Virus record (IMG/VR): IMGVR_UViG_3300045988_177154
Span: 32,001-96,000 of that record
Source: a virus
DNA: 64,000 bases
Strand: one strand, 5' to 3'
Shown: positions 36,404 to 64,000 of the stretch, piece by piece
How the letters are laid out: each line of letters starts with the position of its first letter
Position numbering within the stretch: the first letter of the stretch is position 1
The notes under the pieces: model-generated
Database searches by the model: none
Told to the model about the DNA's origin: nothing
The model's input: only the letters and a program-made list of their open reading frames with translations
Position numbers and translations under genes: made by a program

Positions 36404-36412
36404 GCGTTAAAA

Positions 36413-36527: not shown

Positions 36528-36564
36528 TTGGAATGAGTTGTATTTTTGCTTTTCTTCTTTGATA

Positions 36565-40667: not shown

Positions 40668-40794
40668 TTTACTCCTTTTATGTTATTTATTGTTACTATT
40701 ATAACAAATCATCAGTTTATTTTCAATTAAAGTTAATCATAAAGTTATAATAATTTACAAGAAATATCTATAAAAATTATCTGCTTCTATTATT

Positions 40795-43771: not shown

Positions 43772-44731
43772 ATGACTAAAACAATTAAAGGATTTATTAA
43801 AACTTTCAACAAGCACGAATTAGGAAAAGAATACAGCAAAACAAATTCTTATTTAGCTGATGCTATTAGATTTGAATTAAAAGATGTTTACAATGCTGGT
43901 TCAGATTATTCTATCATCTATCCATACATTTATGAAGTAGAAGCTAATGTTGAAGATGTTTGGAACATTTCAAAAGGACAAACATGGTTGCCTGATTATT
44001 TCCAAACTACAAAAGCTGTTGCAGTTCGTGAAGTCTCATATTTAGAATTAGTACAAGCTATTGATTTAACTTCTTCAACAAAAGAAAAATTTGAAAAAAT
44101 CTATAATGGCGATTTAACTAAAGAAGAATTTGAAACTACTTGGGCTTCTTTAACTAAGAGAAGTTTTGAAGCATTGGGCCACAATCAACGTTTTCTATAT
44201 ATTGCTTGTTTATCTCAAGATAAATATGAATTAACAAAACCTGAAAAGGAATTGTCAGAAACAACTTTAATGCTTCATGCAAAATATGGTAAATTGTTTA
44301 ATAAAGATTTACGAGTAAGTTCAAAAGTCAAAATGAACATTGCAACAGAAAATGAAATCATTAACGCTCTTGAAACAGACTTATTTGATGTTCCAAACAT
44401 TCTTGAAAATTTAGTTGAAACAGAAAATTATGATTTTGATTTTGTTCTTAAGTTATTAAAAGAATCAAATTACTTAATTTTTAATAAATTAACAACAGCT
44501 TATGGATATAACACTGGTCGTTGGGAATTTGATAAAATTGATACTAACAGAGCTAAAGCAGAATCTTATTTAAATCCAATTAAAGCTTTCAATGATTACA
44601 AAGACCATGAAGAGTTAATCTTGAAAGGATTATTATTGAATAACTTTTTAATCAAAGGAGCAGATTATTCAGAATTTGAATCTATTCTAAAAATTAAAGA
44701 AGAATTAGAAGTGGAATTAAAAACTTTATAA
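43772..44731 (+). CDS. divergent member of paralog family F
   Basis: Shares the PYIYEVEANVEDV block and overall length with family F. The rest is diverged. Confidence 0.55.
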   Translation: MTKTIKGFIKTFNKHELGKEYSKTNSYLADAIRFELKDVYNAGSDYSIIYPYIYEVEANVEDVWNISKGQTWLPDYFQTTKAVAVREVSYLELVQAIDLTSSTKEKFEKIYNGDLTKEEFETTWASLTKRSFEALGHNQRFLYIACLSQDKYELTKPEKELSETTLMLHAKYGKLFNKDLRVSSKVKMNIATENEIINALETDLFDVPNILENLVETENYDFDFVLKLLKESNYLIFNKLTTAYGYNTGRWEFDKIDTNRAKAESYLNPIKAFNDYKDHEELILKGLLLNNFLIKGADYSEFESILKIKEELEVELKTL

Positions 44732-44788
44732 GAAAAGAACAACCTAATGGTTGTTTTTCTTATGTCAAAAAAGAAAGGAGTTATTAAA

Positions 44789-45784
44789 ATGATTATTGAT
44801 TGTTATGTGTTTTCAGATGTAGCACTCAAACTAAATCACACTTATTATAACATTGATGATTACAAATTACTATTATATAACTTAAAGGATTATCGAGTTG
44901 ATTCGTTTTCAATCTTTACTTTTATTTATAAAGTAAAAGTAAATTCAGATGATGTACATTATCTTGGTAAATATGGAGTATATTCACTTAAGTATCAAGT
45001 AGTAGAAGAAGTTCCTTTTGGAGATTTTGTAGCAAAACTTTCACTTGGGGGATTAGAAAAAGCTGGACTAATGTCTATTATCAAAGGTACTATGCCCGAA
45101 GATAAAGCTATTAAAAAATATGAAGATATTCTAACTCTAAATAAGTATGGGTATTCATTAACTTTTATTCAAGCCCTCAAATTTCATGCTATACTAAGCC
45201 AAAAGAAATATGAACTACCAATCCTTTATGTAGATGAACAAGGTTGGTATTTAGTTAGATTATTTGAATATTACAATAGAAAATATGAAGCAAAAAATAC
45301 TTTGTCAAATTCTACTAATCATTGTGTAGAACAAGAAAGGATATTAGGTTCAAAAAAATTTGAGGAACATTTTGACATTCAAAATGCTACACTTGCGAAT
45401 GAAAGAGAACTTCAGACTTTTTATGATTTAATAAAAGGAAGAAAGCTAACACAAGAGAAATTTGAGCAGTGTTGTGCTGAATTTATGAATTTATTAGACG
45501 ATGATTATAGAAAGGAATATTTAGCAAAAATAGTTGTATTTTCCAATTATGAAATACCTGAAAAGTATAAAGATATATTTTTACCAGAAGCTGTATTTAA
45601 ATACCCAGATTGGATAAAAGACTTAAAAGAAGAGCATATCTCTTGGCAATATGCTGATGTAACAAGATTCCTTATGATTGGATATAAAGTGAAAAATGGT
45701 AATTACAACCTAGAATGGGCAAATTCAATTATGAATGCTAGAAGCATTTTAAAGAACGACAATTACAAATATATAGAAATTTAA
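44789..45784 (+). CDS. paralog family F protein
   Basis: MIIDCYVFSD start (AAAGGAG RBS). Family blocks are present. Confidence 0.7.
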   Translation: MIIDCYVFSDVALKLNHTYYNIDDYKLLLYNLKDYRVDSFSIFTFIYKVKVNSDDVHYLGKYGVYSLKYQVVEEVPFGDFVAKLSLGGLEKAGLMSIIKGTMPEDKAIKKYEDILTLNKYGYSLTFIQALKFHAILSQKKYELPILYVDEQGWYLVRLFEYYNRKYEAKNTLSNSTNHCVEQERILGSKKFEEHFDIQNATLANERELQTFYDLIKGRKLTQEKFEQCCAEFMNLLDDDYRKEYLAKIVVFSNYEIPEKYKDIFLPEAVFKYPDWIKDLKEEHISWQYADVTRFLMIGYKVKNGNYNLEWANSIMNARSILKNDNYKYIEI

Positions 45785-45792
45785 TTTAAAAA

Positions 45793-45820
45793 AGCAACTA
45801 AAAAGTTGCTTTTTATTTTT
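45793..45820 (+). terminator. intrinsic terminator
   Basis: AGCAACT-AAAA-AGTTGCT plus a T run. Confidence 0.75.
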
Positions 45821-45833
45821 TTACAAAAATGTG

Positions 45834-45862
45834 TTGACAAACTAAAAATCATATTATATAAT
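45834..45862 (+). promoter_or_regulatory. sigma-A type promoter
   Basis: TTGACA-17-TATAAT. Confidence 0.8.
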
Positions 45863-45901
45863 ATAACTACAATAAAGAAATGAAATGAGAGATAAACAAA
45901 A

Positions 45902-46681
45902 ATGGAAATTGCAAAACAATACCACGCAAAAATCAATACAGCCGGAGTTGCTTCAGCTTATAATATTTCTACTGTAACTCGAACTCTTAGCCAGGCAGTA
46001 AAAGATGCTAATCTTGCACTTCATTCAGTAGAAGTACTAACAGAAGTTCCAACAGATAACAAATTAAAAGCAGAAGTACTTGCTGCTCATACTTATCGAG
46101 TAACATGGCAAGGAAAACTAGACATTGAAGTGATTCTCCTTGTTAAATTAGTAAATGGTGCTCAAGTACTAACTATTGATGATGATTTTGCTAATATTGA
46201 ATTGACTAATTCAATTACTATTGAACCACAAGGGCTTATCCGTATGGTTGAAAATGGTGAATTATTCCTTGAAGCTGAATACCAACGTGGATTTGTTTGG
46301 AGCCACGAACACAAAGAAGAATTTTTGCTGGATTGGATTAAAGGTGGAGTTATTATTACTCCTTACCTTGTAAGTTATTACAATGGTGATAACCACATTT
46401 ACGAAGTTCTTGATGGCAAACAACGTTTACAAACAGTTTATGAATTTCTAACAAACAAAATTGCTGTTAAAGGATTGTTGTTTGAAGAATTGCTAGACTA
46501 TGATAAACGCAAAATCCTTAATCGTAGAATTGTAGGCTTGACTATGACTCAAAAATATGGTGACAACGCATATGAGCGCCCAGACATGAAAACTCTTGTA
46601 AATGCTTTCGTGAATTTCAATAAAGGAATTACAGTTGATGAAGAAGTAATCGCCAAAGCAAAAGAATTGATTGAAGAATAA
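45902..46681 (+). CDS. DUF262 / ParB-like nuclease-superfamily domain protein
   Basis: EYQRGFVW ... VLDGKQRLQT is the DUF262 (GmrS-like) signature. No DUF1524/HNH half. Confidence 0.65.
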   Translation: MEIAKQYHAKINTAGVASAYNISTVTRTLSQAVKDANLALHSVEVLTEVPTDNKLKAEVLAAHTYRVTWQGKLDIEVILLVKLVNGAQVLTIDDDFANIELTNSITIEPQGLIRMVENGELFLEAEYQRGFVWSHEHKEEFLLDWIKGGVIITPYLVSYYNGDNHIYEVLDGKQRLQTVYEFLTNKIAVKGLLFEELLDYDKRKILNRRIVGLTMTQKYGDNAYERPDMKTLVNAFVNFNKGITVDEEVIAKAKELIEE

Positions 46682-46704
46682 GCAACCCCACGGTTGCTTT
46701 TTTC
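46682..46704 (+). terminator. intrinsic terminator
   Basis: GCAACC-CCAC-GGTTGC plus a T run. Confidence 0.7.
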
Positions 46705-46753
46705 TTTTAAAAGTTATATAATATAATAAAGAGCGAAAGAAAGAGGTATGAAA

Positions 46754-47743
46754 TTGTTTATTGATTGTTATTTCTTATCAAACATTGTTAGAAAACCTGA
46801 CCATATTTACTATACTAATTATGATTATATGTTTGGCGAATTTTTCTATTTTGATTTAAACCTTTGTAATTTAGACAATATACGTTTTAACACGTACCCT
46901 TATAAAGTTAGAGTTGACTCAAATGATGTGTTTTATATTGCTAATAATGGCTTAAGAGCACTCAAATTTCAAATAGTAGAAGAAGTTAATATTTTAGATT
47001 GGATTGAAGCTTCATCTTTGAAAGATAGAGCAAAGAGTCATTTGAAATCAATTTGTAATGGTTCTGTACTTCAAGATAAAGTGTTAGAATTTTATGATAA
47101 AACTATTATAACTCCAACTGCTTTATTGACTACAGCTCAAATTTTTAAATTGCATGCTATTTTGAGCCAGAAAAAATATGAATTGCCTACAAGAGTAATC
47201 ACTAATGGAAATAAAAGCTATTTGCGAGCTTATGAATTTTATGGCAGAGAATATGAATTTGATTCTAATCATAAACCTTTTTTCAAAGTGTTTGAAGCTG
47301 AAGCTGCCTTGGGGTCTAAAAGATTTGAATATATTGAAAATGAAGATAGTGAAATCCTTATGTCAGATGTGTCAAGTTTTTTAAAATTAGTAGCATCAAG
47401 AAAATTAACTCAAAATCAATTTGAGTATTGTTGTATGTACAGTCCTTTTTTAACTACAGCTGACAAAAAGAAATTTGTTAATACAGCATTACGAGCAAAT
47501 TATGAAATTCCTCATGAGGGCAGACACTTATTCTTTCCCGAAATCATATTTAAACACCCAAGTTGGGTAACAGAATTAAAGACGAAACATTTAGACAATG
47601 ATTATGCTAGAGCTAGATTACTCTTGTTAGGCTATAAATTGAAAGATTATAATTATCATCATTCTTATTGGGCTACTAATATTGAAAACACTAGACGAAT
47701 TTTTAAAAATGCCGTGTATCAATATATAGAACTTGATGATTAG
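46754..47743 (+). CDS. paralog family F protein
   Basis: TTG start 7 nt after AAGAGG gives (M)FIDCYFLS, aligned with the other family N-termini. The ORF-track ATG at 46748 is only 1 nt from the RBS. Confidence 0.65.
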   Translation: MFIDCYFLSNIVRKPDHIYYTNYDYMFGEFFYFDLNLCNLDNIRFNTYPYKVRVDSNDVFYIANNGLRALKFQIVEEVNILDWIEASSLKDRAKSHLKSICNGSVLQDKVLEFYDKTIITPTALLTTAQIFKLHAILSQKKYELPTRVITNGNKSYLRAYEFYGREYEFDSNHKPFFKVFEAEAALGSKRFEYIENEDSEILMSDVSSFLKLVASRKLTQNQFEYCCMYSPFLTTADKKKFVNTALRANYEIPHEGRHLFFPEIIFKHPSWVTELKTKHLDNDYARARLLLLGYKLKDYNYHHSYWATNIENTRRIFKNAVYQYIELDD

Positions 47744-47759
47744 ATAGAAAGAGAAAACT

Positions 47760-48740
47760 ATGAAAATTAAATGCTATTTATTTACAGGTATAGCAAAACA
47801 AGAAAATCATACTTATTATTCATTAGGAGATAATCGAGGTTCAAGATTTTATTATAATTTGAGAGAGGGACTCAATAGAGAAGAAATTAAAATAGCTCCA
47901 TTTGTTTATGAAGTAGAGTTAGACTCAGAAGATATATGTACAATTACTTCTTATTATTTAGAAACAACAAAATTTAAATTAGTAAGAGCAGTTGAATTTA
48001 GAGAAGTTGTAGAAGTTTTAGATGTTTCAAGTAGAACTCGAAACGAATTGAATGCTATCCTTAGATGTGTGAGTGATAAAGCACAAATCATTCAACAATA
48101 TAAAAAATTGCTTTCAAAAGATTATAGTGATTTATCTAGGATAGAGTTTTATAAATTTATTGCTATTATAAGTCAAAAACATTATAAATTACCACTAATT
48201 GAATTTTCTTGCTTTAGAGCATTTAAATATGTTCGGCTATTGGAATTTTATAATCAGCCACATAGATATGCTCTTGCTGGAAGGGGTTATAGTTTTGTAG
48301 CTTATAATAAAGAAAAATTTTATGGAAGTAGAATATTTGAAAATCTGTCAGATTGTACTATAAATGATTTGCTTAGAGAACACGATATTAGGGTACTTTT
48401 ACAGACTAGGAAATTGTCGCAGAAAAAATTTGAAGAATATTGTGAATATAAGTTTAAAAATAAAGATAAGATTTATAATGCAGATGAATGTGTGGGGGCT
48501 GGATATGAAATTCTACCAAAATATAAAGAGCAATTCTACCCCTATATAATCTATTCTAATCCTGAGTTAGCATTAGATTTGGTAAAAAAAGGCTTGAGCA
48601 CCAATGATTATCAAACTTTATTACTTTTAAGAAAAGGATATAAAATCAGAGATTTTGATTATGATAATAATTATAGAGTCTTTGCTACAACACAAAAAGC
48701 CCAAAAGATTTTCATGAAAAATGATTATAAATATATTTAA
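47760..48740 (+). CDS. paralog family F protein
   Basis: MKIKCYLFT start. Family blocks are present. Confidence 0.7.
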   Translation: MKIKCYLFTGIAKQENHTYYSLGDNRGSRFYYNLREGLNREEIKIAPFVYEVELDSEDICTITSYYLETTKFKLVRAVEFREVVEVLDVSSRTRNELNAILRCVSDKAQIIQQYKKLLSKDYSDLSRIEFYKFIAIISQKHYKLPLIEFSCFRAFKYVRLLEFYNQPHRYALAGRGYSFVAYNKEKFYGSRIFENLSDCTINDLLREHDIRVLLQTRKLSQKKFEEYCEYKFKNKDKIYNADECVGAGYEILPKYKEQFYPYIIYSNPELALDLVKKGLSTNDYQTLLLLRKGYKIRDFDYDNNYRVFATTQKAQKIFMKNDYKYI

Positions 48741-48757
48741 GAGAAAGGATAAGAATT

Positions 48758-49741
48758 ATGGCTGTTAAATGCTATTTATTTACAAGTGTGGCTAGACAAT
48801 TAAATCATACTTATTACTCATTAGAATATAATAAATCTTTATACTTTTACCATAATTTAAATGATTATCATAAAGAAGTGAATAAAATTCTATTAAATCC
48901 CTTTGTTTATGAAGTAGAAGTTGAGCCTAAAACAGTGATTGCTTGTGATTCCTTAGGTTTAGTTGCAACGGAATTTAAACTTGTTAGAGAAGTAGAACTT
49001 ACAGAACTTATCAATGCTTATAAATTTTCAATAAAAACGAAAAATGAAATCAATTCTATTCTTAATGGGCTTGCTGATTCATCAGAAGTAATTTCTTTAT
49101 ATAAAAGATTTTTTAAAAAATCTAAATGGGACCTGTCTAAAATTGAAAAATTCAAATTCTTAGCTATATTGAGTCAAAATCACTATAAATTACCTGTTAT
49201 GAAGATTCGTGAAAATTCTGGTATGGAATATGTTAGGATATTGAAATTCTTTAACAAACCTTACATACCCGCCTTTAGAAGCAATGATAGTACGTTTGAT
49301 AGATTTATTGAAATAGAAGAACTTTATGGAAGCAAAGATTTTGAAACTGGTGTAGAATTACCTATGAAAGAACTGGTTTGCCATATTAACTTGAAACAAT
49401 ATATAGAAACAAGGAAATTATCCCAAGAACAATTTGAAGAGTATTGTGAATATATGTTTACTGAAGAAAGAACAATATATTACACTTCTCATGCTATAGC
49501 AGCTGGATATAAAATTTTACCAAAATACAAAAAACATTTTTATCCATATTTAATTTATTCTGACCCCGAAATGGCATTAGAATTGCTTAATAAAAGGAAT
49601 TTAACTCGTACTGCAGTTATTTATTTCTATGAAAAGAATTATAAAATAGGTGATTACAATTACTCTAATGATAAAGTTAGAGAAACAAAAGCAATCTTTG
49701 TAAAAGAAGATGATTATAAATGTATTGAAGTAGCAACTTGA
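48758..49741 (+). CDS. paralog family F protein
   Basis: MAVKCYLFT start. Family blocks are present. Confidence 0.7.
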   Translation: MAVKCYLFTSVARQLNHTYYSLEYNKSLYFYHNLNDYHKEVNKILLNPFVYEVEVEPKTVIACDSLGLVATEFKLVREVELTELINAYKFSIKTKNEINSILNGLADSSEVISLYKRFFKKSKWDLSKIEKFKFLAILSQNHYKLPVMKIRENSGMEYVRILKFFNKPYIPAFRSNDSTFDRFIEIEELYGSKDFETGVELPMKELVCHINLKQYIETRKLSQEQFEEYCEYMFTEERTIYYTSHAIAAGYKILPKYKKHFYPYLIYSDPEMALELLNKRNLTRTAVIYFYEKNYKIGDYNYSNDKVRETKAIFVKEDDYKCIEVAT

Positions 49742-49797
49742 TAGTTGCTTTTTCTTTTTGTTTATTATATAATATAATAGAGCGAAAGGAGTTAATT

Positions 49798-50781
49798 ATG
49801 ATTATAAAATGCTATTTGTTTTCAGATAGAACTAGACAATTAGGTCATACTTATTATTCATTAGGAATGGGAGATTATTTGTATTTTGAGCTTAGCTCAT
49901 ACCAAGATTATTTTCACATTGGTGACCCATTTGTTTACGAAGTAGAAGTTGATACAGACAAAATATTGTATTGTGATAGTGAAAGTGTACACTCTATTGA
50001 GTACAAGATAAGTAGAGTAATCAAATTTGAAGAATATATTTTTACGTTTGAGTTTCCAAAAGATGATTTAAAAGAATTACTTAATATACTTGATGGAAAT
50101 ATTGACAAAAATGAAATGATAGAATTTTATACTGCAATCATTAGTAAAGATGTTTACAAAGTAAATAGGTTTGAGCAATTAAAACTTTTTGCAATATTAA
50201 ATCAAACAAAATATGAGCTGCCAGAAGTAACAATAGAAAAAGAATTTCAAATGGATTACTATGTTAAGCTTTTAATTTATTACAATAAACCTTATCAAGC
50301 TATTTGTAAACATTCCGCCAAAATTTCTGGGTTTAGAAAAGAACTTAATAAGCAGAGAATGCGGGGAACTACTACTTTTGAAACAATTTCAGATGAAATC
50401 ACCGAAAGATTAGCTTATAATTATTTTTTAGATGAATATATACTAAATAGACAACTTACTCAAGAACAATTTGAAAGTTTATGTGAGTACTTCAAGTGGA
50501 ATACACATATTTTTAAATTTAGAATAAAACTTAGTTCAATTGCAGCTGGTTACAAAATTCTACCAGAACATAGAAGTCTTTTTTATCCTTTTGTGCTTTA
50601 TCATGGAATAGAAGATAATTTGGATATAATTGACCGTGAGAAAAAGCCTGATGAATTATTAAAGATTTTATTTAACTGCGGTTATAAATTTAAAAATGTT
50701 GATTATAGCGACATGCCTTCACATGATAAAATTACTGAAGCAAAAATCATCTTTCAAAAAGGATTTAAATATATAGAATAA
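49798..50781 (+). CDS. paralog family F protein
   Basis: Start moved to MIIKCYLFS (AAAGGAG RBS). Confidence 0.7.
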   Translation: MIIKCYLFSDRTRQLGHTYYSLGMGDYLYFELSSYQDYFHIGDPFVYEVEVDTDKILYCDSESVHSIEYKISRVIKFEEYIFTFEFPKDDLKELLNILDGNIDKNEMIEFYTAIISKDVYKVNRFEQLKLFAILNQTKYELPEVTIEKEFQMDYYVKLLIYYNKPYQAICKHSAKISGFRKELNKQRMRGTTTFETISDEITERLAYNYFLDEYILNRQLTQEQFESLCEYFKWNTHIFKFRIKLSSIAAGYKILPEHRSLFYPFVLYHGIEDNLDIIDREKKPDELLKILFNCGYKFKNVDYSDMPSHDKITEAKIIFQKGFKYIE

Positions 50782-50894
50782 GCAACTCTAAGCTGTTTTA
50801 TTTTAAAGCCGATACATTTATCGAAAATCAGTTTTAACTGTTTTACTGTTGATTATATGACGATATAACGACATTCAAAATCAGTCTAAGCAAT
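50782..50894 (+). repeat. dispersed intergenic repeat, copy F
   Basis: GCAACTCTAAGCTGTTTTATTTTAAAGCCGATACATTTATCGAAAATCAGTTTTAACTGTTTTACTGTTGATTATATGACGATATAACGACATTCAAAATCAGTCTAAGCAAT. Confidence 0.85.
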
Positions 50895-50925
50895 ATGAAA
50901 ATTATAAAAAGAACAATAAAAATAT

Positions 50926-50983: not shown

Positions 50984-51409
50984 ATGGCTACTACTGAAGA
51001 ATTACTAACAGAAGCTAGAGAATATTTTGCTCAATTGGAAAAACCAAATGAAGAATTAAATGTTGACTATAATTCTGATTATGTGTTATTTGATGAAATA
51101 GATAAAGAAAATCTAAATAAAAATGGTAGACGAGTATTGCTACTTGACTTAAATAACGGAATGAAAGCTGCATTTTTACTAATACCAGATATGGAACAAA
51201 ATCGTTTTACTTTATCTAAGATTAAAGAAACTGCATCTGTACGATTACTTACAAAAGAAACAAAAAATACAGTAAAACAATTTACTTCTCATAAAGGATT
51301 TTTCCCTACTCTAACTTTAGAACAACAAGGGGATATTACTGGAGCTGTTGTTAAATTAAAAGATGGTTCTTATGCAACAATTACTGAACAATTGGAGGTA
51401 ATTAAATAA
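50984..51409 (+). CDS. hypothetical protein (141 aa, no Cys), first gene of the E1/Ubl/JAB cassette
   Basis: Behind promoter 50926-50954. Its stop overlaps the start of the E1-like gene (TAATG). Confidence 0.6.
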   Translation: MATTEELLTEAREYFAQLEKPNEELNVDYNSDYVLFDEIDKENLNKNGRRVLLLDLNNGMKAAFLLIPDMEQNRFTLSKIKETASVRLLTKETKNTVKQFTSHKGFFPTLTLEQQGDITGAVVKLKDGSYATITEQLEVIK

Positions 51410-52089
51410 TGCTGAAAATTAAAGAAGGCCGAAAATATTATATTGTACTAGGTGCTGGTGGAACTGGGTCTTGGCTTGCACAATTCCTATCTAAAATTGA
51501 AGTTCCAGTATACCTTATTGATGGTGATGTGGTGGAACCTAAAAATGTTCTCCGTCAAAACTTTGTCAATGAAGAAGTAAATATGAGCAAAGCAGAAATT
51601 GCTAAAAAATGGGATTTTGCTTATGTGCCTGAATTTTTGAGTGATACTTCTATTATTGATGAAATTATTGCTCAAGAAGAAGGCACACCAGTACTTGTAG
51701 GTTGCTTAGATAACAATGCTACTCGTAAAATTGCTCAAGATGTATTCTACAATCCTAATTACAAAGACATTTTGTGGTTAGACGGTGGAAATGCAGAGCG
51801 ACATGGTCAAGCTTATGTTGCGGCTAAATATGATAATGAAGTTCATTATGAAAGTCCTATTGCTCTTGACCCAGCATTCCAAAACTTTGAAGGTGATGAA
51901 CGTAGACCAGACCAGATTTCATGTGCTGAACAATCTGAGTCTGCGCCACAAAACGTAACTGCAAACGTTACTAGTGCTACATTGTTATTTAATCTAATTA
52001 ACTTGATTGAAGAAAATGCTATGTTGCTTGGAAATAAATTTATGTTCCACACAAAATTATGTAGTATGACAACAACAGAAATTGTTTGA
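51409..52089 (+). CDS. ThiF/MoeB/E1-like adenylyltransferase
   Basis: Rossmann GAGGTGS, then IDGDVVEPKNVLRQNF (the DxDxVExxNLxRQ signature of E1-like enzymes). Cys in PDQISCAEQ. Confidence 0.75.
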   Translation: MLKIKEGRKYYIVLGAGGTGSWLAQFLSKIEVPVYLIDGDVVEPKNVLRQNFVNEEVNMSKAEIAKKWDFAYVPEFLSDTSIIDEIIAQEEGTPVLVGCLDNNATRKIAQDVFYNPNYKDILWLDGGNAERHGQAYVAAKYDNEVHYESPIALDPAFQNFEGDERRPDQISCAEQSESAPQNVTANVTSATLLFNLINLIEENAMLLGNKFMFHTKLCSMTTTEIV

Positions 52090-53965: not shown

Positions 53966-55144
53966 ATGAAATTAGTAGAACTTTACTCATCAGAACAATT
54001 TAAAAAAGAATCTGACCGTGGTATGATTAAAACAGTTATTGTCGGAAAAGACGGTACGTATGAAGAACAAAATTCTTGGTTAGGTACTTCTCTGAAAAAA
54101 GTACATGATTATGGAGTTATTACATTCCCCGAAGTTACTGAATTTGTAAAAGTAAAAAATGTAAATGTTACAAAAATTCCAGCAATTGCCATTAAAACAG
54201 TAATGAAATGGTACAAAGACATTACTGATAAGAATGGAGAAGAAGCACAAGTAAACTTTTATCTTAAAAGTCGTAAATTGGGCGGAACTCCACAAGATGG
54301 TATTTACAAATTAACTTATACTGAAGAAGATGAATTTGGAATTGAAACAGAAAAGACAGTTAAATTAGAAGATATTCCGGGGCTTAACTTTTGGAATGAT
54401 GATGTATTCTCATATACACCAAAACAAGAAAATTCACACGGCCAAACAAGTACAGATGACCCAATCTATACAGCTCTAAATCAACAATATGGAATGTTTT
54501 TGGAAACACATTCACATAACAGCATGCCAGCATTTTGCTCAAGTACTGACTATGCAAATTCTCAAAATGACGCTGTTCAATTAGTATTTGGGAAATTCAA
54601 AGGCTCTCATATTGAAATGTATAACTGGATTACAGTAAGTCAAAAGCTTAAGGAAGGTTTTGATGCTCATGTATTGGAAAAATTTGTAGAATTTCCAACT
54701 TATTCTGTAAATACAGCAGAAAAGAAATTGAACTTTGATTTTTCTGTACTTTCAGGTGTTGATGAAACAATTCTTGAAGAATGGGATAAACAAGTTATCA
54801 AACCTAAACCTATTGTACGTTCATTTGGATATGGTAGTTATGGTGGCGGATATGCTAACACAATTTGGTCTACTTCAGATACAACTCGTTCACCTTGGAC
54901 TCCAAAACATGGTTCTACTGTAACATCATACAAATCAACTCCAGCTAAGATTGAAGAAGGTTCTGAAAAAGCAATTATTGATTTACTAGAAATGTATGGC
55001 AATGATGCAATTAGTGTGATTGAAAATCTAGTAAGTATTTACAAATCAGCTATTTCAAATGCTACTTATGTAAGCAAGACTGAAACAGAAATTCAAGATG
55101 AAATTGTCACTCTTGTATCGGATGCAATTGATGAACTTTTCTAA
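53966..55144 (+). CDS. JAMM/JAB (MPN+) metallopeptidase domain protein
   Basis: Exact JAMM core H-S-H-NSMPAFC-S-ST-D (HxHx7Sx2D) with an upstream Glu (GEEAQV). Additional ~200-aa C-terminal region. Confidence 0.75.
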   Translation: MKLVELYSSEQFKKESDRGMIKTVIVGKDGTYEEQNSWLGTSLKKVHDYGVITFPEVTEFVKVKNVNVTKIPAIAIKTVMKWYKDITDKNGEEAQVNFYLKSRKLGGTPQDGIYKLTYTEEDEFGIETEKTVKLEDIPGLNFWNDDVFSYTPKQENSHGQTSTDDPIYTALNQQYGMFLETHSHNSMPAFCSSTDYANSQNDAVQLVFGKFKGSHIEMYNWITVSQKLKEGFDAHVLEKFVEFPTYSVNTAEKKLNFDFSVLSGVDETILEEWDKQVIKPKPIVRSFGYGSYGGGYANTIWSTSDTTRSPWTPKHGSTVTSYKSTPAKIEEGSEKAIIDLLEMYGNDAISVIENLVSIYKSAISNATYVSKTETEIQDEIVTLVSDAIDELF

Positions 55145-56436: not shown

Positions 56437-57417
56437 ATGGAAAACAAAACAGAATTAGTAAAACTACTTAATCAAATTTCAACGCTTTTAGAAGGTGAAG
56501 AAGAGCGCTTTAAACATTTGCTAGAACAATTGAAAACTGCTATCAATACAAAAAGTATTGCTCGAGAAGCAGAAACATTAGCAATGAACTTGATTGAAGA
56601 ACGTTATGGTAAATTACCAGAGATTACTAAAATTCAGATTGGTAATAATAAACCAAAAGAAATTAAAGGCTTGACTCACTCTTCTTTTAAATCCATTTTG
56701 ACTTTGCTTGCAAATGGAGAAAATGTTTTGCTTAATGGTCCGTCAGGTACTGGTAAAAACGTGCTTGGTAATCAAATTGCTGAAGCATTAGGATTGGAAT
56801 TTTACTGTACTCCAGCTATTCGACAAGAATATAAATTGAGTGGCTTTATTGATGCAAACGGAAACTTTGTTGAAACTCCATTCTACAAAGCTTGGACAAA
56901 TGGCGGTGTTTATCTATTTGATGAAATGGATGCTTCAGATGCTACCGTTATTCTTAATATTAACTCTGCTCTAGCAAATGGTTATTATGAATTTCCTATC
57001 GGATTGAAAAAGAAACATAAAGATTTCTATATTCTAGGTGCAGGCAATACTTTAGGAAATGGTGGCGACCGTATCTATACTGCTCGTGAAGAATTAGATG
57101 CTTCTACAATTGACCGATTTGCTGTAGTACCATTTGGATATGATGAAAAATTAGAGCGAGAACTTGCTGGAAATGAAAAGATTTATGAATTTATTATCGC
57201 AGTTCGAAAAGCAATTGAAGAAACTGGACTTCGCTATGTTGTATCTATGCGAGCGACAAAAAGTTTAGCACAATTGTATGGCAAAATGGATATTCAAGAA
57301 CTTGTTAAATATGTTGTATGTAGAAATATGCGAACAGCAGACATTAAAACAATTCTTTCACGTTGTAAATGCCCAGTAGATAATCCATTCTATATTGCTC
57401 TTAAAAATATTGATTAA
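56437..57417 (+). CDS. MoxR/CobS-type (AAA_5) AAA+ ATPase
   Basis: Walker A LLNGPSGTGKN, Walker B VYLFDEMD, and the sensor/arginine region TIDRF. Confidence 0.7.
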   Translation: MENKTELVKLLNQISTLLEGEEERFKHLLEQLKTAINTKSIAREAETLAMNLIEERYGKLPEITKIQIGNNKPKEIKGLTHSSFKSILTLLANGENVLLNGPSGTGKNVLGNQIAEALGLEFYCTPAIRQEYKLSGFIDANGNFVETPFYKAWTNGGVYLFDEMDASDATVILNINSALANGYYEFPIGLKKKHKDFYILGAGNTLGNGGDRIYTAREELDASTIDRFAVVPFGYDEKLERELAGNEKIYEFIIAVRKAIEETGLRYVVSMRATKSLAQLYGKMDIQELVKYVVCRNMRTADIKTILSRCKCPVDNPFYIALKNID

Positions 57418-57420
57418 CTA

Positions 57421-57447
57421 AAAAGAGATTTTTATAATCTCTTTTTC
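57421..57447 (+). terminator. intrinsic terminator after the AAA+ gene
   Basis: AAAAGAGATT-TTTAT-AATCTCTTTT. Confidence 0.75.
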
Positions 57448-57448
57448 A

Positions 57449-57560
57449 GTTTAAGCAGCTTTAAGAAGAATTTCTAATAAGACATAGAAATTATCATTCA
57501 TCTATTAAAACTGTCTTAGCTGCTGAGTAACAGTCGCTAATTATCATTTAAATTATTAAC
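57449..57560 (+). repeat. second intergenic repeat subfamily, copy 2
   Basis: TTTAAGCAG...AAAACTGTCTTAGCTGCTGAGTAACAGTCGCTAATTATC resembles 29561-29690. Confidence 0.5.
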
Positions 57561-57640
57561 TATTACTTAAAGATTATTCTATAACTCACTCTTCTTTTTT
57601 ATAGGCTTTATTCCAACGAGCTTTGAAAAAGCGAGGTGGG

Positions 57641-57696
57641 TTATCTATTTAGTTATTTATTTAGTTGTTTATTAGTTATTTATAGTTATTAGCTAA
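57641..57696. repeat. AT-rich tandem repeats (~11-nt period, TAGTTATTTAT-like)
   Basis: TTATCTATTT-AGTTATTTATT-TAGTTGTTTAT-TAGTTATTTAT-AGTTATTAGC read directly. Confidence 0.7.
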
Positions 57697-57778
57697 AAAA
57701 GCGCTGTTTTGCAAAGCGCTTTAGCTGTTGTTACTCAACTGTTTAGAGCATCTGTAAAATGGCGTAATGATAAAAAAC

Positions 57779-58030
57779 AGTATTTTACCGGTGATTATCA
57801 GTATTTTACCGGTTTTTTTGAGTATTTTTGGTCATTTTTTGAGTATTTTACCGGTTTTTTTGAGTATTTTTGGGCCGATTTTAGTATTTCATTACTGAGT
57901 ATTTTACCGGATTTTTAATTGCTTTGTTTTAGTTTTGAATGATTTCACTGAGTATTTTTGGTCTGTTTTTGAATTTTATATATGAGTATTTTTAGGCTTT
58001 TTCAAAATGCTTGATGAGTATTTTACCCTT
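57779..58030 (+). repeat. iteron-like array: 10 direct copies of AGTATTTT(A/T)(C/G)(C/G)
   Basis: Copies start at 57779, 57800, 57821, 57842, 57863, 57883, 57898, 57951, 57985 and 58017. Two alternating variants occur: AGTATTTTACCGG and AGTATTTTTGG(T/G)C. Confidence 0.8.
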
Positions 58031-58040
58031 GATTTATGAT

Positions 58041-58069
58041 TTGACTTATGGGAAAGTTTATAATATAAT
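58041..58069 (+). promoter_or_regulatory. sigma-A type promoter
   Basis: TTGACT-17-TATAAT. Confidence 0.7.
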
Positions 58070-58103
58070 AAAAATAAATAAAAAATGAAAGTAATGAGAA
58101 ACT

Positions 58104-59147
58104 ATGAAAGACGTTATTGAAACAGTAAATACTAAAATCAAAATTTATAGTAAAGAAGAATTTGAAAATGTAGCAAAAGGTTTAAGATTGAGCAATCGTA
58201 ATAATCAATCTGAAATGGCTTCGCCTGAATTTGCAGGTACTGAATCTTTAGCAGAAGCAGAAAAATTACGAAGCGATGGGGATATGGATAGTTATAGACA
58301 AATCCTATATTTTGTTAATAAATTTATTTCTTATACAAAGTATAATAAAAAGATTTCAAAAAATAAAGAAGATGTAGTAGGATTTTCACCTAATGTTTCA
58401 GCGACACTTATGGGTGTTCCTAAAAATATGTTTAATCGTGAAGAACGTAGACTTCCTATGAAAGAGATTTCTATTGCAATCTCGCCTACATTTAGTGCAA
58501 AATATACCACACAAGAAATTATTACATTCGGAACTGTAATGATTAGTTTGATTGACAAATTAGAAAATGAAAATATTAAAGTTAATCTTTATGTATTGTT
58601 TAATATGGGTGTTGACTCAGAAGTCATTAAAGTAAAACATAAAAAAGAACGACATTATTACTCTCCTATCACACAAGCAAAAGCAAGTGTTTATGACATT
58701 GGAAGATTGTTTAAATTAACAGATAAGAAGATTGCTAGATACAAAGATATAGTTAAAACTTATTATGAAACTTTCAAACCAACGAAAGAAGAAGATTTTA
58801 ATACAGAGGGATTTCTTTATCAATTAAAAGCAGCTTCTGACCCATTGAATACATTTGATTGTGCTTATTATATTGTAAACCCATCATTCTTACGCAGACA
58901 TTGCTTGAAAATTCTTGAAACAGACCCATTCTTTACTGATGTTACGTTTGATAATTATGGAGTAGCTTCTCTTAAAAGTGCAGCCATGGCTGAACAAGCT
59001 ATTAAGAAAAAATATAAAGATGTAGCATTCTTTTCTGTTTGGAATAGCAAATTCACTGACCCAGAGAAAATTGGTGATTACATTGAAGCTGCTTACGCTC
59101 GACTCAATAAAGAATTTCCCGACATTTTCAAGAAAAAACAAAAATAA
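58104..59147 (+). CDS. hypothetical protein (347 aa)
   Basis: ORF track. Behind promoter 58041-58069. Confidence 0.6.
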   Translation: MKDVIETVNTKIKIYSKEEFENVAKGLRLSNRNNQSEMASPEFAGTESLAEAEKLRSDGDMDSYRQILYFVNKFISYTKYNKKISKNKEDVVGFSPNVSATLMGVPKNMFNREERRLPMKEISIAISPTFSAKYTTQEIITFGTVMISLIDKLENENIKVNLYVLFNMGVDSEVIKVKHKKERHYYSPITQAKASVYDIGRLFKLTDKKIARYKDIVKTYYETFKPTKEEDFNTEGFLYQLKAASDPLNTFDCAYYIVNPSFLRRHCLKILETDPFFTDVTFDNYGVASLKSAAMAEQAIKKKYKDVAFFSVWNSKFTDPEKIGDYIEAAYARLNKEFPDIFKKKQK

Positions 59148-59151: not shown

Positions 59152-59262
59152 AAGACGCTAAAACTGTTTCTAAGCTGTTTTACTGCAAAGTCGATACATT
59201 TATCGAAAAACAGTTTTGACTGTTTTTGCGTTTCACTAGTGACGATATAACAGGTATCAAAA
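59152..59262 (+). repeat. dispersed intergenic repeat, copy G
   Basis: CTAAGCTGTTTTACTGCAAAGTCGATACATTTATCGAAAAACAGTTTTGACTGTTTTTGCGTTTCACTAGTGACGATATAACAGGTATCAAAAC. Confidence 0.8.
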
Positions 59263-59295
59263 CAAATACTACATAAGATGAAAAGGAGAAAAATT

Positions 59296-61297: not shown

Positions 61298-62083
61298 ATG
61301 ACTAAACCAAAATATTTTAATGATGAACGATCAGCTAAAGCTCAAGCACATATTCAAGAAATGAGCAAGAAATACTCAGAAGATATTCTTGAAATTGTTT
61401 ATGCTTCTACTATCTATATGGAGCCATTGGATAATAAAGTTAATAAAGCTACAACTAATATTATTGTGGATAACATTGATAGTGTAAGTGCTATTTATAA
61501 ACATGGTAATTGGAAAACAGCTGTGCTTAATTTTGCTTCATTTTATAACCCAGGTGGTGGTTTTGCGTGGGGAACTATGGCACAAGAAGAAGCTTTATGT
61601 AGTGAGTCTGTTCTATACAATGTTTTATCTAATAATAAATTTAAGAGTTATTATGCAAATAATGGTAAGGAAGTTTTTGATTACAAATTTGCTGACAGAG
61701 GAGTTTACTCTCCTAGTGTAATTTTTGAGCGACCTTTTTGGTCAAATCTTCGTGGCGCTAATGTTAAAGTAATCAATACTTGTGATGTAATTACTGTAGC
61801 TGCCCCTAATCGCAGACGCCAAACAAAAACTTCTGCTGAAGAAAATTACAATGCTCTTGCTAAACGGATTGATTTTGTTTTAAGTATTGCTCAAGAACAA
61901 AAAGTAAAAACACTTATCTTAGGAGCATTTGGTTGTGGAGTGTTTGCTCAAAAACCTGAAGAAGTAGCAACTTTATTTAAAGAAGCTTTGAAACATTATC
62001 ATTTTGATAAAGTTGTTTTTGCTATTATGCCAGACAAAGAGAATACTAATTTTAAAGTATTTTCTGAAATTCTAAATGGATAA
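61298..62083 (+). CDS. microbial PARG-like macrodomain protein (TIGR02452/DUF2263 type)
   Basis: VLNFASFYNPGGGF..G..AQEEALC.ES.LY signature, plus LILGAFGCGVF near the C-terminus. Confidence 0.7.
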   Translation: MTKPKYFNDERSAKAQAHIQEMSKKYSEDILEIVYASTIYMEPLDNKVNKATTNIIVDNIDSVSAIYKHGNWKTAVLNFASFYNPGGGFAWGTMAQEEALCSESVLYNVLSNNKFKSYYANNGKEVFDYKFADRGVYSPSVIFERPFWSNLRGANVKVINTCDVITVAAPNRRRQTKTSAEENYNALAKRIDFVLSIAQEQKVKTLILGAFGCGVFAQKPEEVATLFKEALKHYHFDKVVFAIMPDKENTNFKVFSEILNG

Positions 62084-62191
62084 AAATAACTGAGAATAGG
62101 GCTTTATTCATCAAAAAGTCCTATCCTTTGTTCAGTTATTGATATTAAATAGTACTTTTTTCAAAAACATAAAATTTTTTCATAAAAAGGA

Positions 62192-62219
62192 TTGACTTAT
62201 AACTCAAACCTGATATAAT
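62192..62219 (+). promoter_or_regulatory. sigma-A type promoter P1 upstream of the tRNA cluster
   Basis: TTGACT-16-TATAAT. Confidence 0.65.
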
Positions 62220-62283
62220 TATTTCTGTTGTTGATATTTAAACAACGTTTTCAGAAAAAGATGAAAAAATTTCAAAAAACCTA

Positions 62284-62312
62284 TTGACACATGACTTTAA
62301 ATAGGTTATAAT
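62284..62312 (+). promoter_or_regulatory. sigma-A type promoter P2 upstream of the tRNA cluster
   Basis: TTGACA-17-TATAAT, preceded by TTTCAAAAAACCTA. Confidence 0.75.
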
Positions 62313-62422
62313 AGAATTATAAATGATTTGATTTATCTTTTGGAGAGATGTAGAATAATAAATCTATACCTTTGCAAAAGATGAATCATTTCAAAAAATA
62401 TAAAAATTTTTTCAAAAACCTA

Positions 62423-62451
62423 TTGACACATAATTTTTGATATGATATAAT
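62423..62451 (+). promoter_or_regulatory. sigma-A type promoter P3 directly upstream of tRNA-Leu
   Basis: TTGACA-17-TATAAT, preceded by TTTCAAAAACCTA. Confidence 0.8.
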
Positions 62452-62478
62452 CATTTATGTACTTTGAAATTTAAATAT

Positions 62479-62563
62479 GCTCGGCTGGTGAAATTTGGCA
62501 AACACAGGGGACTTAAAATCCCCCGACCATTTGGTCTTGCGGGTTCGAGTCCCGCGCTGAGCA
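62479..62563 (+). tRNA. tRNA-Leu (anticodon TAA), type II with long variable arm
   Basis: GCTCGGC/GCTGAGC acceptor stem (one G-T pair). Anticodon arm GGGGA-CTTAAAA-TCCCC. Variable arm GACC-ATTT-GGTC. T arm GCGGG-TTCGAGT-CCCGC. No encoded CCA. Confidence 0.85.
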
Positions 62564-62740
62564 TGATGTGGTGTCTAACAGCCACAAGTCCTCAATTGTT
62601 AGGTTAACCGAAAGGCTAAAATAAATTCAGCGTAATGAGGCATTATGTTTAAGTAATTTATTTTAGGGTAGCTTCCTACCGTAAAGACAGGTATGGTTTA
62701 AGTTAAAATAAGCGTAATAAATAAACAAAAGACTTATCAC

Positions 62741-62824
62741 TTAAATCGGTGACCGAAGACAATCCGTATAATGGCGGTGACTTGTTCGTTGAAATAGAAA
62801 CGGAAAACATTGGTAGTTGTTCAT
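62741..62824 (-). CDS. possible 27-aa peptide gene in a tRNA spacer
   Basis: TAGGAGGTG RBS 6 nt before the ATG. Translation is MNNYQCFPFLFQRTSHRHYTDCLRSPI. No other support. Confidence 0.25.
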   Translation of the reverse strand: MNNYQCFPFLFQRTSHRHYTDCLRSPI

Positions 62825-62840
62825 GACTGCCACCTCCTAT

Positions 62841-62912
62841 TGACCTGTAGCTCAATGGTAGAGCATCCGGCTGTTAACCGGAAGGTTGTGGGTTCGAGTC
62901 CCACCGGGTCAG
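62841..62912 (+). tRNA. tRNA-Asn (anticodon GTT)
   Basis: TGACCTG/CGGGTCA acceptor stem. D arm GCTC-AATGGTA-GAGC. Anticodon arm TCCGG-CTGTTAA-CCGGA. T arm GTGGG-TTCGAGT-CCCAC. Confidence 0.9.
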
Positions 62913-62923
62913 TTAAATTAACT

Positions 62924-63072
62924 TAATGAGCGATACGTTTTATTCCGAATGACCTCCTTAATAAATTTCGGGATTTATCCTCCTTTCATACAACACACGT
63001 TAAATTTTTACTTTTCTAATGAAAGTAAAGAAAAGTAAAAAATATTCTTTCATTGTTTTGTATCGCTCGTTA
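62924..63072 (+). ncRNA. candidate structured RNA closed by a 13-bp long-range helix, with two CCUCCUU motifs
   Basis: TAATGAGCGATAC (62924-62936) pairs with GTATCGCTCGTTA (63060-63072). Internal hairpins are ATTCCGAA...TTCGGGAT, displaying ACCTCCTTA, and TTTACTTTC-TAAT-GAAAGTAAA. Confidence 0.35.
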
Positions 63073-63081
63073 TTTTAATTT

Positions 63082-63154
63082 GGGCCCATAGCTCAGACGG
63101 CAGAGCAGCGGACTTTTAATCCGTGGGTCGCAGGTTCGATTCCTGCTGGGCCCA
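63082..63154 (+). tRNA. tRNA-Lys (anticodon TTT)
   Basis: GGGCCCA/TGGGCCC acceptor stem. D arm GCTC-AGACGGCA-GAGC. Anticodon arm GCGGA-CTTTTAA-TCCGT. T arm GCAGG-TTCGATT-CCTGC. Confidence 0.9.
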
Positions 63155-63187
63155 TTCCTAGTAAAATAAATATATATTAGGTGACCT

Positions 63188-63246
63188 TAGGCACAAACAG
63201 CAACTACTCACACTTTCTATTTGGCAGAAAAAAGATGAGGTGCCTA
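63188..63246 (+). ncRNA. tRNA-like mini-unit U1 (terminal helix plus anticodon-arm-like hairpin, loop ATTTGGC)
   Basis: TAGGCAC pairs with GTGCCTA. A-A-ACAGCAA motif follows the 5' strand. Hairpin TTTCT-ATTTGGC-AGAAA at 63214-63230. Confidence 0.4.
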
Positions 63247-63264
63247 GTTTATACATTTTATACA

Positions 63265-63339
63265 TAACGACATACAGCAAGAATTTTTTAATAACGAAAC
63301 AGACTCCAAATCTATTTTTTCATTTTTAAAAAGTCGTTA
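63265..63339 (+). ncRNA. tRNA-like mini-unit U2 (loop CTCCAAA)
   Basis: TAACGAC pairs with GTCGTTA. ATACAGCAA motif. Hairpin ACAGA-CTCCAAA-TCTAT (one mismatch) at 63299-63315. Confidence 0.4.
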
Positions 63340-63351
63340 GAGTTATATAAT

Positions 63352-63426
63352 TAGTGACACACAGCAATTCTTCAAACTTAGGAACAAAACGTCATTTTGT
63401 AATTACTAAAATAAGAATCGTCACTA
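63352..63426 (+). ncRNA. tRNA-like mini-unit U3 (loop ACGTCAT)
   Basis: TAGTGAC pairs with GTCACTA. ACACAGCAA motif. Hairpin ACAAA-ACGTCAT-TTTGT at 63384-63400. Confidence 0.4.
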
Positions 63427-63451
63427 GATTAAATAATTTTTTTGAATATAT

Positions 63452-63513
63452 TAGTGGCATACAGCAACTCTACTATGGAATGGACTTTTAATCTGTAACC
63501 CAAGAGGCCACTA
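63452..63513 (+). ncRNA. tRNA-like mini-unit U4 (loop CTTTTAA, identical to the tRNA-Lys anticodon loop)
   Basis: TAGTGGC pairs with GCCACTA. ATACAGCAA motif. Hairpin ATGGA-CTTTTAA-TCTGT at 63480-63496. No D or T arm. 62 nt in total. Confidence 0.4.
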
Positions 63514-63540
63514 GATTATATTAGATTAAATTGAATATGT

Positions 63541-63650
63541 TAGTGGCAATCAGCAATTCTTGTCAAACCAGAGGGTTGTGGGTTCGAGCCCCACCGGTTC
63601 AATTGAACCGTAGCTCAATTGGTAGAGCATCAGGCATAAAACAGCCACTA
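63541..63650 (+). ncRNA. tRNA-like unit U5 enclosing a circularly permuted tRNA-like cloverleaf
   Basis: TAGTGGC pairs with GCCACTA. AATCAGCAA motif. Inside, a tRNA 3' half (CCAGA-GGGTT-GTGGG-TTCGAGC-CCCAC-CGGTTCA) is joined by AT to a 5' half (TGAACCG-TA-GCTC-AATTGGTA-GAGC-A-TCAGG). Confidence 0.45.
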
Positions 63651-63662
63651 GATTTTTATTTT

Positions 63663-63734
63663 GGAACCTTAGCTCATAAGGCAGAGCATTCGGTTGAAGC
63701 CCGTTGCGGATAGGTTCGATTCCTATAGGTTCCG
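63663..63734 (+). tRNA. tRNA-Phe-like (anticodon GAA) with a weak anticodon stem
   Basis: GGAACCT/AGGTTCC acceptor stem. D arm GCTC-ATAAGGCA-GAGC. T arm ATAGG-TTCGATT-CCTAT. Anticodon arm TTCGG-TTGAAGC-CCGTT has only 3 Watson-Crick pairs plus two T-T mismatches. Confidence 0.55.
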
Positions 63735-63969
63735 TTAAATTTATATTTTATATTAAATTGGTTGTCCTTGAGATGTAGGTTCAAATCCTGTACTGGCCGC
63801 CGGGTCGGTTATTTTAATTGGTAAAAATACAAGTAGGCATTAAATGAATTGAGAACTGGCACTTCCTTTCATACAATTTAATATAAGGTGATTCGACCGC
63901 CAATCGAATCATTTCTAGTCTTGGGTGACTACATATAAGAAGCTTCTAACTCAAGACTATTTTTAATAA

Positions 63970-64000
63970 GGGTCTCTAGCGAAGTCTGGTTAAACGCAGC
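63970..64000 (+). tRNA. 5' part of a tRNA (type II-like D loop), cut by window end
   Basis: GGGTCTC-TA-GCG-AAGTCTGGTTAAA-CGC is a pattern typical of Ser/Leu/Tyr-type tRNAs. Only 31 nt are visible. Confidence 0.35.

Follow-up and report, generated by a model that had tools for sequence, protein, structure and literature searches.

What does a long gap filled with ordered repeats do in the genome of a very large phage? The question is raised by a 64,000-nucleotide stretch of viral DNA, positions 32,001 to 96,000 of IMG/VR record IMGVR_UViG_3300045988_177154, which we call the window and to which all coordinates refer unless another contig is named. Between a gene for an ATPase and a gene for a DUF7192 protein lies an intergenic gap in which AT-rich tandem repeats are followed by ten copies of a short direct repeat. 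A preliminary description of this DNA took it for the largest non-coding region, which holds among gaps without RNA genes (the tRNA region at 62084-64000 is longer), and proposed that phased iterons next to an AT-rich element form a replication origin or another nucleoprotein site. This is still the best reading, and it has become stronger because the two parts are conserved as one module, 84-86 bp apart, with an invariant core and an array for which extreme curvature is predicted; however, more than one such site exists, the flanking genes are unlikely partners and the hairpin noted within the gap is not conserved. We tentatively regard the module as a candidate multi-copy replication origin of the iteron-plus-unwinding-element type, or a similar assembly site for an initiator, a reading that we hold to be a serious possibility but not a firm assignment.

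The anatomy of the module, as well as its conservation, copy number, fixed geometry, predicted curvature and low duplex stability, can be read directly from the DNA. It is about 260 bp long: a short patch of GC is followed by the C-free block of 11-mers, a spacer of 84 bp and five 21-bp units (Table 1). All ten direct copies of the AGTATTT(T/C) core start exactly where the preliminary description had placed them. Six of these had been described as lying two helical turns apart, which is true to the base pair for the first five (21 bp), whereas the sixth is degenerate and belongs to the irregularly spaced set. Exact matches to AGTATTTT are strongly concentrated here: 9 of the 20 in the whole window fall inside 246 bp of the gap, all on the + strand (Poisson P ~2e-21), and the remaining 11 in 64 kb correspond to the 12 expected from shuffled sequence. 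The four or five AT-rich tandem units reported earlier are also present, direct reading giving about five, and Tandem Repeats Finder (TRF) delimits them to 57640-57683 with a period of 12 and 3.8 copies. The annotated open reading frame (ORF) at 57709-57918 is, as had been supposed, a by-product of the repeats: the unit is free of stop codons in two frames, and in 22 of 84 distinct module copies no frame is open across the array. By contrast, the hairpin AAAGCGCT/AGCGCTTT, which had been assigned to 57686-57710, is located at 57697-57722, and other module copies do not preserve it as a hairpin.

Table 1. Features of the gap and its surroundings (window coordinates)
Feature	Position	Strand	Remarks
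Upstream gene, AAA_5 (MoxR/CobS-like) ATPase	56437-57417	+	Pfam AAA_5 4.8e-10; phrog_249 9e-52; outside the module
Gap	57418-58103 (686 bp)		Bounded by ORFs 56437-57417 and 58104-59147
Terminator-like hairpin of the ATPase gene (AAAAAGAGATT-loop-AATCTCTTTTT)	57420-57446	+	Arms 57420-57430/57436-57446, 11/11 complementary
Diverged copy of the window's other intergenic repeat (IR-2; family D3/D5/D15)	57449-57560	+	Weak alignment with IR-2 copies located before the module at other loci
Short GC-rich patch (GCGAGGTGGG)	57631-57640	+	Left module edge, directly before the 11-mer block
AT-rich block, about five 11-12-nt units, consensus AGTTATTTAT	57640-57694	+	Almost C-free on the + strand; candidate unwinding element
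84-bp spacer	57695-57778	+	Conserved box CGCTTTAGCTGTTGTT at 57717-57732
Core iteron-like array, five phased 21-bp units	57776-57882	+	(C/G)AGTATTTT, G/C-rich pentamer, T-run; core starts 57779, 57800, 57821, 57842, 57863 (spacing 21, 21, 21, 21)
Long-array extension, five more same-strand cores	57883-58029	+	Irregular spacing; core starts 57883 (degenerate, AGTATTTC), 57898, 57951, 57985, 58017
Sigma-70-type promoter of the downstream gene	58041-58069	+	TTGACT-17-TATAAT, 11/12; kept in orthologues
Downstream gene, DUF7192 protein	58104-59147	+	Pfam DUF7192 2e-19; phrog_1909; outside the module

The gap had been presented as a single site. Searches with proteins and with the repeat pattern recovered related contigs from IMG/VR and ENA assemblies, and in this clade of uncultivated phages of 270-335 kb each genome carries three to five copies of the module, which occur in both orientations. 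Copies were aligned for four genomes (14 copies) and mapped more widely (about 80 copies on some 60 contigs). They occur in three flank contexts: (A) the AAA_5 ATPase/DUF7192 gap, (B) after another intergenic repeat and (C) divergent from a gene for a protein of 396 amino acids (aa). Near-complete genomes always carry an inverted pair of 'short' modules, about 3.67 kb apart, around the genes for an NAD-dependent DNA ligase and the 396-aa protein, each with exactly five units followed by a terminator. One copy is always found in the ATPase/DUF7192 gap, mostly some 118-131 kb from this pair, and one or two further 'long' modules exist in some genomes. These positions are constant across about 12 genomes. 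Every module runs in the same direction as at least one of its two neighbouring genes, and long arrays are co-oriented with both. Many contigs begin or end at a module, as would be expected if assemblies break at repeats.

When 75 units were read at fixed offsets of 21 bp, their core, A-G-T-A-T-T-T-T, was invariant save for two single substitutions at its last two positions, and the base before it was C or G. The five bases that follow are G/C-rich yet free (ACCGG, ACCCC, TGGTC, TAGGC, AGGGC), and a T-run comes after them. A wider count of 705 units agrees on the core, although it is partly circular, as these units were found by their core. The comparison of repeat phasing among related phages, which had been suggested as a check, shows that five units at 21-bp steps are kept in most copies: about 80% of the roughly 80 mapped copies have exactly five. 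The number of extra units, on the other hand, ranges from 0 to 10 among orthologues and is not constant even among close relatives: compared with a genome in which the two flanking proteins are 97-98% identical, the window is about four units short, and another genome has only the five. The 11-mer block (GTTATTTATTAAGTTATTTATTTnGTTGTTTAnTAGTTnTTTATAGTTATTAGCT in the aligned copies) is 86-94% identical to its orthologues, and block and spacer together 84-94%, comparable to the flanking coding DNA. The block is kept in every copy and in a diverged lineage, L167, and the G/C-rich patch stands directly 5' of it in all three flank contexts and in that lineage.

A dispersed repeat that is selfish or neutral and serves no function itself might also be multi-copy and intergenic, split a conserved gene pair and, in one instance, be duplicated along with a gene fragment, as described below. 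Such a repeat would not be expected to keep its positions fixed in about 12 genomes, to hold core, unit count and spacer length constant while the neighbouring bases drift, or to persist in a lineage in which the neighbouring 396-aa protein shows just 69% identity, and we give this explanation next to no weight.

The distance between the two conserved parts is itself conserved. The spacer measures 84 nt in 115 of the 115 main-clade copies with an intact first core; in four further copies 105-106 nt separate the block from the next core. In L167, the lineage with the 69% identical 396-aa protein, both modules of the ligase locus are kept, each with the 11-mer block and five phased AGTATT(T/A)TT units, and the spacer is 85-86 nt long with a largely changed sequence. 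A length of 84 bp corresponds to eight helical turns, and constancy of length combined with drift of sequence points to a geometric constraint acting on the DNA. As a separate observation, both spacer copies of L167 (its positions 11640-11700 and 7650-7700) hold TTGACA-17-TATTTT, aimed into the repeats, and the main clade has no good promoter at this place.

The spacer also has long-range complementary arms, GCGCTGTTTT at 57701-57710 and GTAAAATGGCG at 57754-57764, which bear on an alternative at the level of RNA: the module might be transcribed and its RNA, with a structured spacer and five GAGUAUUUU motifs, might bind or sponge a protein. The z-score of folding is -2.7 for the + strand, G-U pairs on that strand are the only variation that the spacer stems tolerate, and the absence of modules opposed to both neighbouring genes would fit a transcribed element. 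However, the stems that RNAalifold places in the spacer show zero compensatory pair changes, the opposite strand folds equally well against shuffles (z = -3.1), the module has no promoter of its own and no Rfam match, and the structure is not kept in the diverged lineage, though the spacer length is. For these reasons an RNA-level function is unlikely, indeed highly improbable in our estimate; the 21-bp period and the phased T-tracts are, moreover, properties of the DNA helix.

Each 21-bp unit contains two T-tracts about 10.5 bp apart. In wedge-model trajectories (Bolshoy-Trifonov parameters, plus a simple AA-wedge model), no other 105 bp of the window are as curved as the five-unit array, whose predicted ratio of end-to-end distance to contour length is 0.32; the median is 0.955 and the second most curved stretch reaches 0.72. 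The predicted ratio lies between 0.23 and 0.49 in 15 of the 15 module copies tested, versus 0.70-0.88 for the shuffled array. The neighbouring 11-mer block ranks among the 0.3-0.7% least stable windows of 40-60 bp, in DNA that is already AT-rich. An HU-like (Bac_DNA_binding) gene, found near the ligase locus in diverged relatives (L167 16477-16755; L169 4510-4782), encodes a possible architectural partner for curved DNA.

Strong predicted curvature would also suit a centromere-like, packaging or genome-organising site, where a protein polymerises on the phased repeats as a ring or solenoid in order to move, anchor, condense or package the genome. Phased direct repeats in curved superstructures are typical of parC, tubC and the sites of terminase small subunits, and several sites per genome would fit an organising role. 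The centromeres R1 parC, pSK41 parC and TubR-tubC resemble the array in their helically phased tandem direct repeats, which form curved or solenoidal complexes, often over a promoter. Unlike the array, however, parC and tubC adjoin a partition operon and have no AT-rich repeat block attached. Window-wide Pfam scans detected no ParA, ParM, TubZ, ParB or terminase family, and no partition-type operon, with ParA, ParM or TubZ, stands beside the array in the window or at the other loci examined. A pac or cos site would be a single oriented site near the small terminase or bound by it; instead there are three to five copies in both orientations, which argues against a single packaging start, and the window has no terminase gene. 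The conserved AT-rich block at its fixed distance would have no role in such a site, which we consider unlikely.

The reading of the module as an origin can be cast as a mechanism. Here we infer protein binding, unwinding and initiation of replication. A sequence-specific protein, most likely phage-encoded, would recognise the invariant AGTATTTT core and bind cooperatively to five sites that lie on one face of the helix, two turns apart. As the array is predicted to be strongly curved beforehand, the DNA might wrap around the protein oligomer, and either the resulting strain or a direct contact across the eight-turn spacer could open the neighbouring AT-rich 11-mer block, which the short GC patch would bound on its far side. 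Helicase and primase would be loaded after opening. The extra, irregular cores might titrate the same protein or couple it to the downstream promoter, in the manner of auxiliary iterons in plasmids.

A multi-copy origin or initiator-type assembly site is favoured because this combination of phased, seemingly cooperative sites, predicted curvature, a GC-bounded AT-rich block of short tandem repeats at a fixed helical distance and auxiliary sites matches the textbook anatomy of iteron origins and that of oriL in phage SPP1. Iteron origins have at least three direct repeats of about 17-22 bp in helical phase, of which the module has five at exactly 21 bp, together with a neighbouring unwinding element that is AT-rich, contains short tandem repeats and has low stability, as predicted here. 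Plasmid iterons are 17-22 bp long, and there are five of them in RK2 and P1; shifting an iteron by half a turn abolishes cooperativity, and the unwinding elements carry 13-mer repeats, one strand of which is bound by the initiator (PMC4980987). With iteron theta origins (RK2 oriV, P1 oriR, R6K gamma, pSC101) the module shares direct repeats of 21-22-bp period on one helix face (PMC4980987). Further shared traits are an adjacent AT-rich element made of short tandem 11-13-mers, a GC-rich boundary, irregularly spaced auxiliary iterons and repeats that reach a promoter. Gram-positive Rep_3-type theta replicons and P1 incA are likewise comparable in these features. The module departs from the iteron plasmids in that no Rep gene is adjacent or identified, there are no DnaA boxes, only 8-9 bp of the unit are fixed, the repeats stand 84 bp away from the AT-rich block, and three to five complete copies exist in a phage genome of about 300 kb.

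Among viruses, the initiator G38P of SPP1 binds two regions, oriL and oriR, and oriL combines iterons with an AT-rich element (PMC5737612). The module resembles the system of this Bacillus (Gram-positive) phage in its occurrence at separate places and in the repeats plus AT-rich unwinding element that make up oriL (PMC5737612). SPP1 oriL, however, lies inside the gene of its known initiator and has no sequence similarity to the module, which is present in more copies, including an inverted pair. The origin of phage lambda, with four phased and intrinsically bent iterons that are wrapped by the O protein beside an AT-rich stretch, also resembles the module, although it is a single copy inside the O gene. 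In herpes simplex virus, another large DNA virus, several copies of one type of origin (oriS/oriL) occur, two of them in inverted repeats, and the genome isomerises; these origins are eukaryotic and built of palindromic sites around an AT spacer, unlike the direct repeats of the module. The origin reading is further supported by the lack of a single-site 'regulon' elsewhere in the window, where other AGTATTTT matches are at background, and by the location of the inverted pair among genes of DNA metabolism (ligase, topoisomerase II, a PD-(D/E)XK nuclease and a DnaQ-like exonuclease).

Several points weigh against an origin. The preliminary description identified no initiator, and a Pfam scan of 92 ORFs of the window, which amounts to about 20% of the genome, likewise gave no Rep, replisome-organiser or DnaA-type initiator family; nor was such a family found among the neighbours of other module copies. 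The gene for the 396-aa protein by the inverted pair was considered as a candidate binder and rejected: it belongs to no family, has no sequence match in the PDB and only clade-restricted homologues, its confident structural model (predicted local distance difference test, pLDDT, 85.8) has no fold match, and it is present without modules in a more distant relative. No DnaA box (TTATCCACA, at most one mismatch) occurs in 84 distinct copies, boxes being optional in plasmids. The GC skew, whose analysis had been proposed earlier, does not turn at 57.8 kb and follows the gene strand throughout the window, so that it is uninformative. The curvature of the array is the output of a model, and the 11-mer block is not the least stable DNA of the window. 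In large virulent phages, replication driven by recombination can dominate. Finally, extra cores are found only where a co-oriented promoter follows, an arrangement that suits a role in transcription equally well.

In such a role, the array would serve transcription control or DNA architecture: a regulator of phage or host origin, bound to the cores, would activate, repress or insulate the neighbouring promoter, with the curved DNA as an upstream element. Long arrays do extend to a sigma-70-type promoter, and in the window the start of the last core lies 24 bp upstream of the -35 hexamer. In all 51 copies for which the downstream gene could be called, it is also co-oriented with the long array. 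A conserved part of 9 bp and a variable part of 12 bp reproduce the geometry of LytTR-type operators, which in Firmicutes (AgrA, ComE, PlnC/D) consist of 9-bp direct repeats 12 to 13 bp apart, 12 bp giving a period of 21 bp, just upstream of the -35. LytTR operators, however, normally have two repeats, against 5-15 in the module, and neither a LytTR domain nor a comparable regulator family emerged from the window-wide Pfam scans. Short modules are followed by a terminator rather than by a promoter, the genes 3' of long arrays are unrelated to one another, other promoters of the window have no isolated sites, and sister promoters of the same type (family D20) are without arrays. The AT-rich block at its fixed 84-bp distance would remain unexplained, and on balance we find a role in transcription control or DNA architecture rather unlikely.

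The inverted pair of the ligase locus bears on a further alternative, a polar replication-fork barrier or a recombination site, with the pair acting as a trap or as a flip-flop switch. One pair is always inverted, about 3.67 kb apart, no module opposes both genes beside it, and long arrays point the same way as both. In addition, the 3.4-kb segment with the ligase and 396-aa genes is flipped relative to its flanks in three contigs (L082 = ODXU01000003, L132 and L063, versus L061, L105, L096 and L114). This flip may reflect genuine flip-flop recombination across the inverted 260-bp repeats, or else an ambiguity of assembly, and isomers can also come from ordinary homologous recombination between such repeats. 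No recombinase or Tus/RTP-like gene was found in this analysis and the AT-rich block is again left without explanation; a barrier or recombination site appears very unlikely. We also tried the ends of a Tn7/Mu-like transposon, which are inverted arrays of transposase sites around a mobile segment with a transposase gene, and rejected them: the pair bounds the ligase and 396-aa genes with no transposase family, it occupies the same place in all genomes and the other copies are solitary.

If the modules are origins, a bolder version can be imagined, in which three to five identical origins are fired by an initiator of an unrecognised type and recombination across the inverted pair flips one fork or segment, leading to isomerisation and amplification in a phage in the manner of herpesviruses or the 2-micron plasmid. 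We regard this extension as unlikely.

The kind of element is known; what is new is the presence of several identical complete modules, including an inverted pair, in a phage of about 300 kb, with only an 8-bp fixed core and no adjacent initiator. To our knowledge, the origins and initiators of jumbo phages are poorly mapped, and our reading of the literature, which was not surveyed systematically, found no description of the repeats of these phages. From sequence alone, a sharply defined candidate is obtained, with an invariant 8-bp core, fixed geometry, extreme predicted curvature and known positions in about a dozen near-complete genomes. Should the modules be origins, they would show how several identical start sites serve to replicate a phage genome of very large size, and the five-unit array could act as bait for a new initiator. 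Should they not be, they would nevertheless mark a conserved site of nucleoprotein assembly with an organising role in these genomes.

The module was also absent from other replicons searched. No plasmid gave a DNA match, and its pattern has no match in 185,579 reference bacterial and archaeal genomes; in the same genomes the matches listed for a triple-core pattern were all unrelated perfect tandem repeats, from Nostoc, Prevotella and others, and lacked the 11-mer block. Rfam searches of the window at gathering and permissive thresholds returned tRNAs only, with nothing in the gap at an E-value below 0.3. The array differs from a CRISPR array, in which repeats of at least 23 nt alternate with unique spacers, its conserved repeat being 8-9 nt long.

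The flanking genes had been put forward as partners of the array, the upstream one as a MoxR-type AAA+ ATPase and the downstream one as DUF262/ParB-like. The latter is in fact a DUF7192 gene, and the only GmrSD_N/DUF262 gene of the window lies 11 kb away. Just 11-60 nt separate the AAA ATPase gene from the DUF7192 homologue behind it in Twort-like phages of Staphylococcus, as well as in other metagenomic phages. Because the two genes adjoin without a module there, they are unlikely partners of the array and would rather be partners of each other; for the same reason the module is, judging by gene order, an insertion that splits two genes that belong together. The gap opens with the terminator that had been predicted at its start, present as a fully complementary hairpin whose stem is kept in orthologues, and closes with the near-consensus promoter, as described before. 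The supposed copy of a second intergenic repeat is related to that family, but only as a diverged copy that aligns weakly.

One genome (L011, 4001-4159, with L069, IMGVR_UViG_3300007663_000073, ~158.7-159.3 kb) has a second long module behind a duplicated 3' fragment of the AAA_5 ATPase gene, corresponding to residues 273-325 and 77% identical. The module has therefore spread through a duplication that included flanking DNA.

The window has 29% GC, four tRNAs (genes at 62478-63735), many strong sigma-70-type promoters and no DNA similarity to cultured phages. Its accessory genes are typical for large phages and include a Dda-like helicase, RNA ligases, a polynucleotide kinase, a TnpB-like gene and PARG/macro. 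A related contig (L014, 7628-11461) encodes a 1277-aa adhesin of the antigen I/II family with an LPXTG anchor, which hints at an oral Gram-positive coccus as host.

The IR-2 family of intergenic repeats is found at 4650-4775, 25117-25185, 27105-27144, 36408-36533, 50774-50899 and 59156-59281. Its members have a palindrome TCGATACATTTATCGA, flanking arms GCTGTTTT/AAAACAG and a conserved TGACGATATAAC box. IR-2 directly precedes the module at several loci, and the word GCTGTTTT is common to IR-2 and the module spacer; folding of IR-2 yielded nothing from the poor alignment.

Seven tandem or dispersed paralogous genes of about 320-350 aa, which share DNA repeats, occupy 36630-37622 and 43772-50781; the GmrSD_N gene (45902-46681; DUF262, ParB-like fold), with a DGKQR motif, lies among them. 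A TnpB/Cas12f-like gene on the minus strand (39171-40667) stands between two 188-nt direct repeats (38959-39146 and 40794-40981) that are 78% identical. A ThiF-family E1-like gene is located near a gene for a 392-aa protein with a weak match to PRTRC protein A (JAB-like), and a microbial PARG/macro-domain gene lies downstream (51409-52089, 53966-55144, 61298-62083); the ThiF/JAB-like and PARG/macro genes may represent ubiquitin-like and ADP-ribose-reversal systems. Finally, genes for RNA repair (15032-16021, 32262-33278 and other ORFs), namely a polynucleotide kinase/HD protein, two proteins of the RNA-ligase family and a HAD_SAK_2 domain, are found alongside the tRNA genes.

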